From a virus (lineage: Duplodnaviria; Heunggongvirae; Uroviricota; Caudoviricetes), in the IMG/VR virus record IMGVR_UViG_2541047778_000017: DNA of 9,994 nt, one strand, 5' to 3'. The position numbers were made by a program, and so were the translations under genes. Below are positions 4,605 through 9,994 of this stretch, piece after piece; the first letter of the stretch is position 1; every line of letters starts with the position of its first letter. Below the pieces are notes generated by a model, which was given only the letters and a program-made list of their open reading frames with translations, had not been told where the DNA came from and did not search any database.

Positions 4605-5297
4605 TTAATTGTGTCGCTTAAGGGTCTGTGACTGACTGATTAAGACCTTTCCAAAGACCATAAACCGGTGTTCGTTTTCGCTGGTAATTCCCCATTCACG
4701 GTAAATCTGGTTATCAGAAATTACCAGTAGTTTGTCAGGTATCATTTGCAGTCGTTTGACATAAATTTTATCATCAAAACCAAACACATAGATACCATCC
4801 CCATCAAACTGATTGATACTGATATCAACGAAGATGAGATCTCCTGGCTCAATGGTTGGACACATACTGTCCCCACGAACGTTGATAACTTTAATGTGAT
4901 TGGCTGGTCGTCCTCCAAACATCGATACAGCATTATCAGTTATGTATTCAATGGCATGAATCACATCAATGACATCACCGCCCTGGATAAGGCCATTTCC
5001 CGCACTGACACTGACATCCAGCATTTCAATACGGAATACATCCTTCACCTGCGCAACATCCTCACCAGTACTGTTTTTACATACAGTATTACTTTTGAAG
5101 TCTGAGGTAAAGAGATCTGCAATATCAACACCTAAGCTCCTGGCAATATTACTCAGGGCTTGTTCAGTGAATTGTTTCTGCTTACCTGTTTCCAGGCGTG
5201 AGATATTCGCCGCATCCACTCCTATTGCTTCAGCGAGATCGGCGATTTTCATGTTCTTCGCCTGGCGAAGTTGTCTGACTCGATTTCCTATGCTCAT
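4605..5297 (-). CDS. phage repressor, cI/LexA-like: N-terminal HTH plus C-terminal S24 autopeptidase domain (230 aa)
   Basis: N-terminal HTH (VRQLRQAKNMKIADLAEAIGVDAANISRLETGKQ) and C-terminal S24 signatures (VRGDSMCPTI with the Ser nucleophile; IYVKRL with the Lys general base). Divergent from a cro-like gene across a 97-bp operator region. Confidence 0.9.
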   Translation of the reverse strand: MSIGNRVRQLRQAKNMKIADLAEAIGVDAANISRLETGKQKQFTEQALSNIARSLGVDIADLFTSDFKSNTVCKNSTGEDVAQVKDVFRIEMLDVSVSAGNGLIQGGDVIDVIHAIEYITDNAVSMFGGRPANHIKVINVRGDSMCPTIEPGDLIFVDISINQFDGDGIYVFGFDDKIYVKRLQMIPDKLLVISDNQIYREWGITSENEHRFMVFGKVLISQSQTLKRHN

Positions 5298-5655: not shown

Positions 5656-6205
5656 GCATCACTGGAAAGTGGAAAAACAACCTGAGTGGTACGTGAAAGC
5701 TGTCAGAAAAACTATCGCGGCATTGCCTGGGGGTTACGCTGAAGCTGCTGACTGGCTGGATGTAACAGAGAACGCTTTATTCAACCGCCTTCGTGCAGAT
5801 GGCGATCAGATTTTCCCGCTGGGATGGGCAATGATTTTGCAACGTGCTGGTGGAACTCACTTCATTGCTGACGCTGTGGCGCAGTCTGCAAATGGCGTCT
5901 TTGTGTCTCTTCCTGACGTCGAGGATGTGGACAACGCCGATATTAACCAGCGCCTGCTGGAAGTCATCGAACAGATCGGGAGTTACTCAAAGCAGATTCG
6001 TTCGGCAATCGAAGATGGGGTAGTGGAGCCACACGAGCAGACAGCAATTAATGATGAGTTGTATCTGTCAATTTCGAAGCTCCAGGAGCATGCAGCACTG
6101 GTCTACAAAATCTTCTGCGCTCCAGAAAAGAGTAACGCCCGCGAGTGTGCAGCTCCGGGCGTCGTGGCGTCGATTGCTTCTGGTTGTGGAGAAACTAACG
6201 CATGA
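5648..6205 (+). CDS. CII-like phage regulatory protein (phage 186 CII / CP76-type), 185 aa
   Basis: GTG start at 5648 with AGGAGG at 5636-5641 (6-nt spacing), overlapping the cro-like stop at 5653-5655. Position immediately after cro and overall sequence character recall the CP76-type CII family; this assignment is from memory only. Confidence 0.55.
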   Translation: MGKHHWKVEKQPEWYVKAVRKTIAALPGGYAEAADWLDVTENALFNRLRADGDQIFPLGWAMILQRAGGTHFIADAVAQSANGVFVSLPDVEDVDNADINQRLLEVIEQIGSYSKQIRSAIEDGVVEPHEQTAINDELYLSISKLQEHAALVYKIFCAPEKSNARECAAPGVVASIASGCGETNA

Positions 6206-6350
6206 ACAGTTTAACGGCAAATAACCGTTTGTCGCAACAGCTGGTGGTCAGCGTCGCTGAACACCTGTTGTTACGGCATGAATGCAGATTACCAAATCAC
6301 CTGGCTGTAAGTAACCACAGAGAACTTTACCTGACTGTGGGGGGCGAGTT

Positions 6351-6530
6351 GTGCAGGAACTTAACCGCTGGTTTCGTGACGGAAGAGGGCTTTATGTCCA
6401 TGTTATTCGTTGGGAGCCAGAAACACAGCGCGTTATCTATCTTCGCAAAGACTACCCGCATGAGTGCTTTAGTCCTTTGTGGAAATTCAGGCGTGATTTT
6501 GTTGAGTGTGAAGGACCACCAGCATATTGA
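6351..6530 (+). CDS. candidate small protein, 59 aa (VQELNRWFRDGRGLYVHVIRWEPETQRVIYLRKDYPHECFSPLWKFRRDFVECEGPPAY), GTG start
   Basis: Not in the ORF track. Alternate frame inside the long 6202..7353 ORF, bounded by TAA 6312-6314 and TGA 6528-6530. Its composition is protein-like (W, Y, mixed charge), unlike the overlapping long frame. G-rich stretch 6338-6343 could serve as an SD; a LexA-box-like palindrome lies 31 nt upstream. Confidence 0.3.
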   Translation: MQELNRWFRDGRGLYVHVIRWEPETQRVIYLRKDYPHECFSPLWKFRRDFVECEGPPAY

Positions 6531-6807
6531 TTCTGCAATTCCGGGACGTTACACTGCTCAGGCACCTTATAAAGCGGGTGCCGGGCGTGGAAACCCGAAA
6601 TTCAATATAGAGCACAACCGCGCTCATGCGGTTTTTTCGTGTCATGAGCATCGTTACGCCCAAATTATGGTGGGGCGTGCAGGGCCAACTTCGGTTGGGC
6701 CGGGTTCTATGTTGACCGGTATTTCCACCCCTGTACGTCTCACCACCTATATGGTCGTGGAAAGCCTTGGTGGTGAGTTCATTGAATTCAACATAGGGGC
6801 TGTCACC

Positions 6808-7353
6808 ATGACTACTCTCCCAACCCAATCTCACCCTGAAATCACGATTATCAATGGTCGCGTTGTTACCACATCTTTTGCAGTAGCTAATTACTTTACT
6901 AAACGGCATGAGCGGGTTTTAGATAGAATTAGAAACCTCGAATGTTCCGCTGAATTTACTGAACACAATTTTGTGTTAAGTGAATACACCGACGCATCAG
7001 GCCGCAAACTCCCTTGTTACCAAATCACCCGCGACGGTTTTGCGTTTCTTGCCATGGGCTTCACTGGTAAACGTGCTGCCCGGTTCAAAGAGGCATACAT
7101 AAATGCCTTTAACCAGATGGAAAAACTGCTTTCAAAGCCATCCACGCTGAGCGATGCCGCAGATAACGCCAGCGTGCTTTACTCCCACCTGTCGGTAATC
7201 CACAAGGTCTGGCTGCAGCAGCTTTATCCCATGTTGGCAAAAGCCGAATCCCCGCTGGCTGTAAGTCTGTATGACCGCATCAACGACGCGGCGCTACTGG
7301 CCAGTCTCATAAATTTGTCGCTGAACCCTTCAGAGGTAAGGGGGCGCAAATGA
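6808..7353 (+). CDS. Rha-family phage regulatory protein (181 aa from ATG 6808; the frame is open upstream to ATG 6202)
   Basis: MTTLPTQSHPEITIINGRVVTTSFAVANYFTKRHERVLDRIRNLECS...YQITRDGFAFLAMGFTGKRAARFKEAYINAFNQME matches my recollection of the Phage_pRha domain, which is normally N-terminal. AGGGG lies 8 nt upstream of ATG 6808. The 202 in-frame codons upstream are His/Ser/Arg/Gly-rich and poor in Asp/Lys, which argues against their being coding, although the ATG at 6202 overlaps the cII-like stop (ATGA). Confidence 0.65.
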   Translation: MTTLPTQSHPEITIINGRVVTTSFAVANYFTKRHERVLDRIRNLECSAEFTEHNFVLSEYTDASGRKLPCYQITRDGFAFLAMGFTGKRAARFKEAYINAFNQMEKLLSKPSTLSDAADNASVLYSHLSVIHKVWLQQLYPMLAKAESPLAVSLYDRINDAALLASLINLSLNPSEVRGRK

Positions 7354-7574: not shown

Positions 7575-7870
7575 ACTGTTTTCAGTTTGTGTGCGGATGT
7601 GCTTTCGATAACCCGATTCAGCGCCTGATTATGTTGCGTGTTTTGATGTCGGGTTCTTCAGACGGTGAAGGCGAGAGAGTTATTGATCATCAGGTGCTTG
7701 CTGATTTCTGCTGTTGTTCTAAGCAAGCGATATTCAGGGAAACCCTGGCACTGGAAAGAGCTGGTTATCTTCATATCCGAAAAATTGCAACGCTTACTAT
7801 TGATGCAAAAGCCAGACTACAACCTGCGCGTGGCTACACAATTCTCATGCTGCGGAAGGAGGTTGTATGA
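7571..7870 (+). CDS. hypothetical protein (99 aa), possibly winged-helix
   Basis: GTG 7571 with GGAGG 7 nt upstream; stop TGA 7868-7870 overlaps the ATG of the replication gene (ATGA). The segment VLADFCCCSKQAIFRETLALERAGYLHIRK resembles a DNA-binding helix pair. Confidence 0.5.
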   Translation: MNCFQFVCGCAFDNPIQRLIMLRVLMSGSSDGEGERVIDHQVLADFCCCSKQAIFRETLALERAGYLHIRKIATLTIDAKARLQPARGYTILMLRKEVV

Positions 7871-8862
7871 GCCGTTACGCCCCCACACCGGAAGTTATGG
7901 CTATTGGTCAAATTAATATTTCCGGCAATGTTACACCTGCGACCTGGTGGAAATATATTCGACTACCCAGTGGGCGTCCGGATGCGACGGCTATCGCTCT
8001 GCTTTCAGAGATCGTTTACTGGTACCGCCCGACAGAGGTCAGGGATGAGCACACCGGAGCGTTGCTGGGATATCGCAAGCGTTTTCAGGGCGACAAACTG
8101 CAAAGAAGCTACCAGGCGTTTGCTGAGCAGTTTGGTTTCGGGAAAAGGGAAACCGCAGATGCGCTGAAGCGTCTGCGCGATGCAGGGTTTATTACTCTGG
8201 ATTTACGCACGGTGGAAATGCTCGATGGGGTGAAATGCAGCAATATTTTGTTTGTCGGGATCAACCCACAGGCAATTGCGGCCATCACCACACCTTCTTC
8301 TGTTTCGCCAGAAAGTAACAGCAATAATGCAATCAGCGATACAGCTATTACGTTAAAACGGAACACCCCCCGACGTCATAACGGAACAGGGGATACGCCG
8401 AATGTTGATACAAATACAGAGATTACTACAGAGATTACTACAGAGATTACAACGGAGACTAAAAACACTATTGGCGCATCCGCTGACGCGTCTGCACCAG
8501 CGCGTTCTGCCAGACAGGAATATTCACCGGAATTTGAACAGGCCTGGCAGGAATATCCCAAACGTGCTGGTGGTAATTCAAAATCCGCCGCTTTTAAAGC
8601 CTGGAAAGCCCGAATCAGGGAAGGTGTGACACCCGAAACCATGCTCGACGGTGTGAAACGCTATGCCGCCTGGGTGCGTGTCTCTGGAAATACCGGTACC
8701 CAGTTCGTGAAGCAGGCGTCGACGTTCTTTGGTCCGGATCGTCATTTCGAAGAATCCTGGGAAGTTCCTGCGGTATCTGCAGTCAGACGCGAGGACCCGT
8801 ACTTCAAAGCCAGTTACGACAACGTGGACTACAGCCAGATCCCGGCAGGATTCAGGGGGTGA
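7867..8862 (+). CDS. phage replication initiation / replisome-organizer protein (O-like N-terminal DNA-binding domain, DnaD-like C-terminal domain), 331 aa
   Basis: Perfect AGGAGG 4 nt upstream of ATG 7867. N-terminal winged-helix-like region (ALKRLRDAGFITLDLRT), a low-complexity linker encoded by tandem repeats (NTEITTEITTEITTETK), and a C-terminal EFEQAWQEYPKRAGG...KAWKARI...FFGPDRHFEESWE block that matches the pattern F..W..YP.K......A...W of DnaD-like/replisome-organizer C-terminal domains as I recall it. Confidence 0.7.
   Translation: MSRYAPTPEVMAIGQINISGNVTPATWWKYIRLPSGRPDATAIALLSEIVYWYRPTEVRDEHTGALLGYRKRFQGDKLQRSYQAFAEQFGFGKRETADALKRLRDAGFITLDLRTVEMLDGVKCSNILFVGINPQAIAAITTPSSVSPESNSNNAISDTAITLKRNTPRRHNGTGDTPNVDTNTEITTEITTEITTETKNTIGASADASAPARSARQEYSPEFEQAWQEYPKRAGGNSKSAAFKAWKARIREGVTPETMLDGVKRYAAWVRVSGNTGTQFVKQASTFFGPDRHFEESWEVPAVSAVRREDPYFKASYDNVDYSQIPAGFRG
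8416..8460. repeat. tandem 12-bp repeat (ACAGAGATTACT, about 3.75 copies) inside the replication initiator gene; candidate origin iterons
   Basis: ACAGAGATTACT at 8416-8427 and 8428-8439, ACAGAGATTACA at 8440-8451, partial ACGGAGACT at 8452-8460. A separate 9-bp direct repeat AACGGAACA occurs at 8356-8364 and 8379-8387, just upstream. Confidence 0.8.
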
Positions 8863-8864
8863 GC

Positions 8865-9194
8865 ATGAGTCTTTTGAATGACGTTCAGAAATTCATTGAA
8901 GCCCATCCGGGGTGTACTTCCGGAGACATTGCGGATGCTTTTGCTGGTTACTCACGGCAGCGCGTTCTGCAGTCAGCAAGCAAGTTACGTCAGAGTGGGC
9001 GTGTGGCTCACCGTTGTGAAGGAGATACACGCAGACATTTCCCACGCCTGACTGAGAGAGCGCAGGATCCGGAACCACAACCAGTTCGTGAAACCAGACC
9101 TGTGCGCAATTTCTATGTCGGCACTAACGACCCGCGGGTGATTTTGTGCCTGACCCGCCAGGCGGAAAAACTGGTCAGGGAGATGGCGGCATGA
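8865..9194 (+). CDS. hypothetical protein (109 aa from ATG 8865; alternative GTG at 8859 overlaps the upstream stop)
   Basis: GGGGG at 8855-8859 lies 5 nt upstream of ATG 8865; its stop TGA 9192-9194 overlaps the next ATG (ATGA). N-terminal region (FIEAHPGCTSGDIADAFAGYSRQRVLQSASKLRQSGRV) looks winged-helix-like. No family recognised. Confidence 0.5.
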   Translation: MSLLNDVQKFIEAHPGCTSGDIADAFAGYSRQRVLQSASKLRQSGRVAHRCEGDTRRHFPRLTERAQDPEPQPVRETRPVRNFYVGTNDPRVILCLTRQAEKLVREMAA

Positions 9195-9517
9195 CGACGT
9201 TAACTCAATGCCAGCAGCAGGTGCTGGATATGCTGATTTCTTATCAGAAAGAACGTGGCTTCCCGCCAACCAATCAGGAGGTGGCAACCATGCTGGGATA
9301 CCGTTCAGTGAATGCAGCGGTGGAGCATCTTCGCGCACTGGAGAAAAAAGGCGTCATCACGATAAAGCGTGGCGTGGCCCGGGGCATCACGCTTCATACC
9401 GCGGTGAAGGACGACGACAGCGAGGCGGTCGGGATTATCCGCTCACTGCTTGCCGGTGAGGAAAACGCAAGGCTGCGTGCAACCCACTGGTTACATGAGA
9501 GGGGCCTGAAAGTATGA
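9191..9517 (+). CDS. LexA N-terminal DNA-binding-domain protein lacking the S24 peptidase domain (108 aa)
   Basis: MTTLTQCQQQVLDMLISYQKERGFPPTNQEVATMLGYRSVNAAVEHLRALEKKGVITIKRGVARGITL aligns by eye with the E. coli LexA N-terminus (LT.RQQEV...I......G.PPT..EIA..LG.RS.NAA.EHL.AL.RKGVI......SRGI.L). No Ser/Lys peptidase motifs follow. GGAG 7-10 nt upstream of ATG 9191. Confidence 0.7.
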   Translation: MTTLTQCQQQVLDMLISYQKERGFPPTNQEVATMLGYRSVNAAVEHLRALEKKGVITIKRGVARGITLHTAVKDDDSEAVGIIRSLLAGEENARLRATHWLHERGLKV

Positions 9518-9903
9518 AGCTGATCCTGCCTTTTCCGCCCAGCGTGAACACGTACTGGCGACACCCCAACAAAGGGGCGTTTGCTGGTAAGAGCCTGATA
9601 AGCGCGGCGGGGCGAAAATTCCAGAGCGCGGCGTGCGCAGCAATAGTTGAGCAGTTACGTCGTCTGCCGAAACCAACGTCGGCACCTGCTTCAGTGGAGA
9701 TCGTGTTGTTTCCTCCGGATAACAGGATCCGCGATCTGGACAACTATAACAAGGCGCTGTTTGACGCCCTGACCCACGCGGGGGTGTGGGAAGACGACAG
9801 TCAGGTGAAAAGAATGCTGGTGGAGTGGGGACCGGTTATCCCGGAAGGGAAGGTCGAGATCACTATCAGTAAGTACGAGAAAACGGCGGGTGCAGCTGCC
9901 TGA
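9514..9903 (+). CDS. rusA: RusA-type Holliday junction resolvase (129 aa)
   Basis: LPFPPSVNTYWRH and RDLDNYNKALFDALTHAGVWEDDSQV match conserved RusA motifs, including the catalytic acidic cluster region. ATG 9514 overlaps the upstream stop (ATGA). Confidence 0.85.
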   Translation: MKLILPFPPSVNTYWRHPNKGAFAGKSLISAAGRKFQSAACAAIVEQLRRLPKPTSAPASVEIVLFPPDNRIRDLDNYNKALFDALTHAGVWEDDSQVKRMLVEWGPVIPEGKVEITISKYEKTAGAAA

Positions 9904-9922
9904 TTAAGAGGAGAAACGAAGT

Positions 9923-9994
9923 ATGAATAATCTGATGGTCATTGATGGTATTGAAGTTCGTCGTGATGCTTATGGGCGTTACAGCCTGAACGAT
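9923..9994 (+). CDS. 5' end of a gene truncated by the window edge (MNNLMVIDGIEVRRDAYGRYSLND...), possibly a KilA-N-type protein
   Basis: Strong RBS AGAGGAGAA 9 nt upstream of ATG 9923. The opening motif (IDG..VR.D..GRY.LNDL) resembles the start of KilA-N-type prophage proteins as I recall them. Only 24 codons are in the window. Confidence 0.35.
   Translation, partial: MNNLMVIDGIEVRRDAYGRYSLND

Follow-up and report, generated by a model that had tools for sequence, protein, structure and literature searches.

The closest characterised analogue of the phage protein analysed here is gp6 of the Bacillus tectivirus GIL01 (Fornelos et al., 2018; PMC6182141), which is a shortened homologue of LexA and an activator of the late promoter P3. 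gp6 binds GaCACAnnTGTGaC and has the recognition helix SHKTAHRYL, in which K38 is essential (PMC6182141). For E. coli LexA itself, the DNA contacts in helix 3 are S39, N41, A42, E44 and E45 (PMC3091678). The LexA DNA-binding domain (DBD) alone fails to repress sulA, whereas its fusion to any dimerising partner represses (PMC7595419). Other phage products that damp or reshape the SOS response are GIL01 gp7, phage DinI-like proteins and Listeria phage AriS (PMC4551915, PMC9043618). These act on the RecA or LexA proteins and not on SOS operators, and they have no sequence or fold kinship with the protein described below.

We analysed a window of 9,994 nucleotides of viral DNA (IMG/VR record IMGVR_UViG_2541047778_000017), in which a LexA-type DBD is encoded as a protein of its own. 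The features of this gene and its immediate neighbours are:

8859–9194, plus strand: upstream PerC/YfdN-like ORF, 111 aa ('transcriptional activator' PHROGs)
9178–9183, plus strand: Shine-Dalgarno-like GGGAGA, 7 nt 5´ of the LexA-DBD ATG (read from the sequence)
9191–9517, plus strand: LexA-DBD-only gene, stop codon included (ORF list, PF01726, PHROG 362)
9191–9400, plus strand: LexA-type winged helix-turn-helix, residues 1–70 (helices 6–22, 28–35 and 40–52; strands 56–59 and 65–68)
9305–9346, plus strand: recognition helix region, residues 39–52, SVNAAVEHLRALEK (alignment with E. coli LexA)
9401–9514, plus strand: linker and two-helix tail, residues 71–108 (linker 71–75, helices 74–87 and 93–103; AF2)
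9514–9903, plus strand: rusA, Holliday junction resolvase (Pfam RusA, E=6e-15)

The protein is a LexA-type DBD without the autopeptidase domain

The gene product is 108 aa long and belongs to the LexA_DNA_bind domain family and to PHROG 362 ('transcriptional repressor'). The original prediction was a LexA-type DBD that lacks the autopeptidase domain, with an HMM search against the LexA DNA-binding family as the proposed check. This search bears it out, with a match to Pfam PF01726 at E=2.9e-19 and 69 bits (cut-off 23.7) that aligns protein residues 1–65 with model positions 1–65 of 65. The PHROG 362 profile is matched over the full length (E=1.1e-59; residues 1–108 on profile positions 1–106 of 106). 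In the AF2 model of the protein (pTM 0.54), the predicted DBD superposes on E. coli LexA (PDB codes: 1lea, 1jhh and 3jso) at 1.4–1.8 Å, and it shares 44–50% amino acid identity with the LexA N-terminal domain.

No match to a Peptidase_S24 domain with the Ser119/Lys156 dyad is found in the 108-aa protein, and the next ORF is RusA. The canonical LexA equivalog model TIGR00498 gives 70.8 bits against a cut-off of 110.95 and covers model positions 1–91 of 203. A weak HMMER alignment runs on into the LexA hinge/cleavage-site region (...LLAGE versus ...VAAGE). A residual cleavage site at the A88-G89 dipeptide within LLAGEE was considered and rejected, because AK, AN, VG and others stand at the same place in relatives and the segment is predicted to be helical (AF2). 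With no S24 domain, no conserved cleavage site and a score under the TIGR00498 cut-off, the protein is not a member of the LexA equivalog. Compared with canonical LexA, it retains the winged helix and the contact residues S39, N41, A42 and E45, but has neither the S24 peptidase/dimerisation domain nor the conserved Ala84-Gly85 site; it carries V44 and a 38-aa two-helix tail and is located in an early lytic operon.

The protein as such is already present in annotation, and a precedent for the concept has been characterised. Identical proteins in mEp460, SfII, Ayreon and Stx2 phages are named 'LexA DNA binding domain protein'; others are annotated 'LexA-like protein' or 'repressor, lexA family', and some copies, wrongly, 'SOS-response repressor and protease LexA'. 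GenBank, PHROGs and RefSeq already label the protein, so the domain call is not a discovery. A full-text literature search found no functional study of the enterobacterial LexA-DBD-only family.

The likeness to gp6 is that both are phage LexA DBDs without a cleavable C-terminal domain, expressed with early genes. Pairwise BLASTP of the two proteins gives no alignment, and hhalign of the family against gp6 returns a probability of 96.7% with 32% identity over 63 columns. gp6 is a tail-less protein of 66 aa, whereas the protein described here adds the conserved 38-aa tail. The gp6 helix SHKTAHRYL is re-targeted and gp6 is an activator, in contrast to the LexA-like SVNAAVEHL found here. The settings also differ, GIL01 being a linear tectivirus plasmid-prophage without cI in a Gram-positive host.

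The gene belongs to the early rightward operon

The stop codon of the ORF at 8859–9194 overlaps the LexA-DBD start (ATGA), and the LexA-DBD stop overlaps the rusA start in the same way (ATGA), which agrees with the proposed translational coupling between a small ORF and rusA in a nin-like early region. RefSeq neighbours name the counterpart of the upstream ORF 'yfdN: PerC family transcriptional regulator'; most relatives have a phage Dam methylase in its place. The chain of overlapping ORFs comprises cro (5395), a cII-like gene, Rha, three replication-region ORFs, the PerC-like ORF and rusA, with no convincing promoter or terminator between cro and rusA that would isolate the LexA-DBD gene. 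The unbroken chain indicates that the gene belongs to the early rightward operon of a lambdoid prophage. A scan of 8700–9994 for operator-like palindromes near the gene yields just two weak inverted repeats, and the PADLOC defence models yield one weak and irrelevant CARF match.

A conserved family confined to Enterobacteriaceae prophages

By tblastn, the protein is found at 97–100% identity in about 50 sequenced phages, which include mEp460, SfV, SfII, SfIV, Ayreon and SKA5 as well as Stx2a, Stx2c and Stx2k converting phages. Of the 5426 complete E. coli genomes, 2233 carry the gene, usually once; it is almost always followed by rusA and preceded by a phage Dam methylase or, in fewer cases such as this window, by a PerC/YfdN-like gene. 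An exhaustive profile search recovered full-length relatives at 38–47% identity. All the named distant relatives are from Enterobacteriaceae (Cronobacter, Enterobacter, Cedecea, Klebsiella, Salmonella and Citrobacter), and the family is confined to prophages of these bacteria. rusA is the family's nearly invariable downstream partner, as in the Enterobacter, Cronobacter and metagenome loci, and despite differing replication modules the order is kept: replication protein, PerC and/or methylase, LexA_DBD, RusA, KilA-N or Rha, DUF968 and Q.

Over 51 distinct alleles, pN/pS is 0.07 (0.02 in the DBD and 0.21 in the tail), which means strong purifying selection, and such low values mark a functional protein and not a remnant. 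Sharing of 16-mers among 80 related loci shows that only the nin module, from −1.3 to +2.5 kb, co-travels with the LexA-DBD gene; no distal phage element beyond this module always accompanies it. Phages whose copies of the gene are nearly identical have dissimilar immunity, replication, Q and late regions.

DBD-only LexA proteins form a much larger world than the PHROG 362-type family, with 738 matches at E<=1e-10 in a representative search. Proteins P0128, P0129, P0134, P0137, P0138 and others have two tandem LexA_DNA_bind stretches within 140–230 aa, and Dam-LexA_DBD fusion ORFs occur as P0022, P0092 and P0098.

The recognition helix is LexA-like with one systematic difference

The LexA counterpart of the recognition helix SVNAAVEHLRALEK is SPNAAEEHLKALAR. 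Four of the five LexA contacts are kept (S39, N41, A42 and E45), and E44 is replaced by V. Position 44 is nowhere acidic across the family, while E45 and A42 vary in some distant members. The subfamily of the window thus looks LexA-like at this helix, with position 44 as the one systematic difference. The non-acidic residue 44 together with the variable 42 and 45 suggests that the specificity may have drifted.

A conserved two-helix tail is the putative dimerisation element

The tail had been regarded as an unrelated stretch, a view that does not survive comparison with relatives of only 38–47% identity, in which it is a conserved family feature with the pattern E-[AV]-x3-[IL]-R-x-L-[LV]-A ... 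A-R-x-R-A-x2-[WFY]-L. In the AF2 model, linker residues 71–75 have pLDDT below 50 and the tail helices about 88. Searched alone, the tail has no match in the PDB at E<=10 and gives only a sub-threshold NIL match in Pfam. Structural neighbours that align over 80–86 residues include regulators of the MntR/DtxR/IdeR and MecI/Rv1846c types. Regulators of these types dimerise via helices located C-terminal to the winged helix, which for the tail is an analogy only.

We propose that the two-helix tail replaces the S24 domain as the dimerisation element. Any occupancy of SOS boxes depends on such dimerisation, since the LexA DBD alone does not repress sulA; as any dimerising partner restores repression, a small dimerising tail would be enough. 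The engineered LexA-DBD fusions of the bacterial LexA two-hybrid system provide a working model, in which a DBD with a C-terminal dimeriser is a non-cleavable sulA repressor (PMC7595419). They differ in being artificial and in using the E. coli LexA DBD, whereas the DBD here is about 50% diverged and its tail is a presumed dimeriser.

SOS boxes in the window and in related phages

SOS boxes were scored with a position weight matrix (PWM) trained on 21 E. coli operators. Its absolute scores are approximate; the training sites score 12.9–27 bits. The features concerned are:

4605–5297, minus strand: cI repressor gene, which contains the 5069–5088 box in its inter-domain linker (codons NTVCKNS)
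5069–5088, no strand: near-consensus SOS box TACTGTTTTTACATACAGTA (PWM 25.8 bits)
6305–6320, no strand: CTGTAAGTAACCACAG, the site first put forward as a target (CTGT-N8-ACAG ends exact; PWM 7.6 bits)

The site at 6305–6320 had been put forward as a target; as an SOS box it is rejected, its 7.6 bits lying below every training site. It lies in coding sequence that the window shares with mEp460 and SfV. The 383-aa ORF at 6202–7353 has an Ash domain (residues 117–213) and a Rha domain (223–308), and its first ~60 residues, the stretch that holds the 6305–6320 site, fall outside the best PHROG profile; the true start of this ORF may be further downstream.

The sole strong SOS box in the window is the one at 5069–5088, which fits TACTGT-N8-ACAGTA at 12 of 12 flank positions, independent of the PWM. 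Exact CTGT-N8-ACAG occurs twice against 0.16 expected, at just the cI box and 6305; loose matches (up to 1 mismatch) are not enriched in the window (4 observed, 3.3 expected). The cI-internal box is found at the same position in SfII, ST64B, Klebsiella phage 1 LV-2017 and Flotzy with 23–27 bits. These four cI alleles have 69–92% DNA identity, and the linker peptide diverges; retention of the box while the flanking peptide diverges indicates selection on the DNA. A specific link between this box and the LexA-DBD gene was considered and rejected, given that in ST64B, Flotzy and Klebsiella phage 1 LV-2017 the box is present and the gene is missing. The box is a candidate target primarily of host LexA and also of the LexA-DBD protein.

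The cI-sense strand has a conserved −35-like TTTACC, 17 nt upstream of the box, whose TACTGT is a possible −10 element, and a Shine-Dalgarno-like GAGGA and an in-frame GTG (V84) follow downstream. One possibility is that the box serves as an internal promoter under LexA control, from which a repressor with the C-terminal domain only would be made; another is a LexA roadblock within cI. No earlier report of a cI-internal SOS box was found in the literature searched, and this operator embedded in cI is arguably more surprising than the LexA-DBD gene itself.

Among 80 IMG/VR loci sampled, in which the LexA-DBD gene is 98–100% identical, 44 have at least one strong SOS box (15 bits or more) in the flanks and 36 have none. 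The recurrent positions are cI-internal (24), the start of a late-region methylase gene (26) and the stretch after rusA and before KilA-N (5).

Several of the boxes in relatives stand at defined genes. The identical box TACTGTAAAAATAAACAGTG (22.3 bits) occurs in SfV (L006, 34170–34189), Ayreon (L012, 41489–41508) and a Stx2c phage (L011, 16752–16771), where it lies within the gene of a 350-aa 'putative DNA methylase' between Q and holin, 8 nt past the annotated start; the same box is present in 26 of the 80 related IMG/VR loci. The box TACTGTATTTATGAACAGTG (21.7 bits) is in the rusA-KilA-N intergenic region of L035 (12114–12133) and of four similar IMG/VR loci. Its place before the KilA-N gene suggests that KilA-N may be LexA-controlled in some relatives; the equivalent place in the window (9904–9923) has no box. 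mEp460 has a DinI-like gene beside int, and two strong boxes in tandem (L001, 799–846; 23.4 and 21.3 bits) overlap its annotated promoter, so that this phage has two different SOS-modulating genes, the DinI-like one and the LexA-DBD gene.

In the Enterobacter sp. Ap-916 prophage (L013, 4505–4579), a terminator hairpin and a promoter (TTGCAA-17-AATAAT) are followed by the SOS box ACCTGTACATTCATACAGTA, directly upstream of an operon of small ORF, LexA_DBD homologue, small ORF, RusA, DUF968 and Q; these elements come just after an inserted RNase toxin/immunity moron. The LexA-DBD gene of this prophage may itself be LexA-regulated or autoregulated. In the loci with distant homologues L002–L005, the stretch that runs from cI up to the lysis genes lacks a strong SOS box.

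A possible RecA-insensitive surrogate of LexA

Our preferred but tentative reading, to which we give a little under an even chance and of which the dimerisation, the SOS-box specificity, the expression timing and the effect on physiology are inferred, is that the protein is a RecA-insensitive surrogate of LexA, dimerised through its tail, that re-occupies SOS boxes during lytic growth. The N-terminal winged helix would read LexA-type half-sites (CTGT), and the C-terminal two-helix hairpin would take over dimerisation from the missing S24 domain. With no cleavage site or peptidase domain, the protein could not be inactivated by activated RecA. It would be synthesised from the coupled early (pR) operon cro-cII-rha-replication-perC-lexDBD-rusA, and membership in this operon implies that it would accumulate in lytic growth, when SOS induction has destroyed host LexA. 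On the host chromosome, the SOS boxes would be occupied again and the SOS regulon shut down again. The phage targets would be the cI-internal box here and, in relatives, the boxes at the dinI-like, KilA-N and late-region methylase genes.

Several observations count for this reading. The DBD is of full length and superposes on that of LexA; the helical tail is conserved; purifying selection is strong; the four contacts S39, N41, A42 and E45 are kept, compared with SHKTAHRYL in gp6; the hosts (Enterobacteriaceae) share the CTGT-N8-ACAG box and the family is restricted to them; SOS boxes are frequent in the lineage (44/80 loci); and an SOS box lies upstream of the homologue's operon in the Enterobacter prophage. 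Co-travel of the nin module alone fits a target that is available in trans everywhere, such as the host SOS boxes, and speaks against a dedicated distal operator on the phage, the mode in which gp6 works. Points against this reading are the absence of any PDB or Pfam family match for the tail, the change of E44 to V with varying E45 and A42 in distant members, the loose tie between phage SOS boxes and the gene (36/80 loci without a strong box), and the intact host LexA of an undamaged infected cell, in which a surrogate would be redundant.

A broader claim, that about 40% of E. coli genomes encode a RecA-proof LexA surrogate which resets SOS after commitment to lysis and, in phages like this one, also acts on the cI operator, seems to us rather improbable. 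If true, it would be an undescribed SOS-wired commitment circuit, in which competing SOS-inducible elements (colicin lysis genes, LexA-controlled antirepressor prophages and SOS toxins) would be silenced, and the cI operator may drive an internal promoter for the C-terminal-domain-only repressor or block cI transcription. Were SOS boxes re-repressed, this very common prophage gene would actively alter how the host responds to DNA damage during induction. The carriers are Stx2-converting phages, serotype-converting Shigella phages and many commensal E. coli prophages, and the possible effects extend to prophage competition, colicin release, mutagenesis and the timing of Shiga-toxin phages. The analysis mostly re-derives existing database annotation; what it adds is the conservation of the tail, the recognition residues that are retained, data on synteny and selection, and a better target site at 5069–5088.

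Alternative functions of the protein

The protein may instead be a phage-specific transcription factor with a re-targeted, non-SOS operator that activates or represses a nin or late promoter in the manner of gp6. This is unlikely in our judgement, yet it deserves real weight. gp6 itself is the precedent for a truncated LexA homologue at a late promoter, P3 (PMC6182141), and hhalign links the family to it (probability 96.7%, 32% identity). The consistently non-acidic position 44, the variation of 42 and 45 in distant members, and the distant loci L002–L005, which lack a strong SOS box between cI and the lysis genes, point in the same direction. However, the subfamily of the window keeps S39, N41, A42 and E45, which gp6 changed; late transcription proceeds via a Q antiterminator, and phages that share the near-identical gene have different Q and late regions. 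The co-inherited module also offers no conserved palindrome as an operator, with the two weak inverted repeats in 8700–9994 being all that is seen.

Synteny raises another explanation, in which the protein is no transcription factor but binds DNA in the service of the recombination, replication or methylation module and, for example, targets or modulates RusA or Dam. The gene almost always adjoins rusA on its upstream side with overlapping stop and start, its usual neighbour on the 5´ side is a DNA methyltransferase or the replication protein, which also holds for relatives of 38–47% identity with other replication modules, and the databases contain the Dam-LexA_DBD fusion ORFs. Phage synteny, however, often reflects module inheritance and not function, and the fusion ORFs are rare singletons, probably frameshifts. 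The arrangement also has exceptions: L005 has an opposite-strand gene between the LexA-DBD gene and rusA, and ST64B and Klebsiella phage 1 LV-2017 lack the LexA-DBD gene, the Dam-like gene of ST64B directly adjoining RusA. Fold and conserved residues match those of a sequence-specific repressor, and we consider an accessory role quite improbable.

The tail bears on a further explanation, that the protein is a monomeric half-site binder which competes with host LexA and, as a dominant-negative 'anti-LexA', would lower repression instead of restoring it. On their own, LexA DBDs are weak operator binders and give no repression (PMC7595419), dimerisation through the tail is inferred, and the AF2 model has a pTM of 0.54 and a floppy linker. 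A weak monomer would, however, be a poor competitor of dimeric LexA, and the conserved amphipathic two-helix tail would need another explanation, its pN/pS of 0.21 arguing for a function. Such a role appears highly improbable. That the gene is a decaying, functionless remnant of a captured lexA, as the weak HMMER extension into the hinge/cleavage region might suggest by hinting at a longer LexA ancestor, is effectively refuted by its pN/pS of 0.07 over 51 alleles, its intact state in 2223 of the 5426 E. coli genomes and an architecture kept down to 38% identity in several genera, and with a DBD just about 50% identical to that of host LexA it is not a recent capture.

Other features of the window

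The left end of the window is absent from all 80 related loci and is therefore probably a strain-specific moron. It contains a 139-aa ORF at 1–420 with no match in PADLOC, the sole library searched. At 1003–1893 on the minus strand lies a 296-aa hydrophobic protein, probably a multi-pass membrane protein, which has a weak PADLOC Csx27 match (E=2e-5). Few of the 80 related loci have the replication module of the window (16-mer sharing about 0). Inside its replication gene (7867–8862), a 12-bp tandem repeat TACAGAGATTAC of 3.7 copies at 8415–8458 encodes TEITTEITTEITTE; the repeat looks like an iteron-type origin within the initiator gene, as in lambda O.
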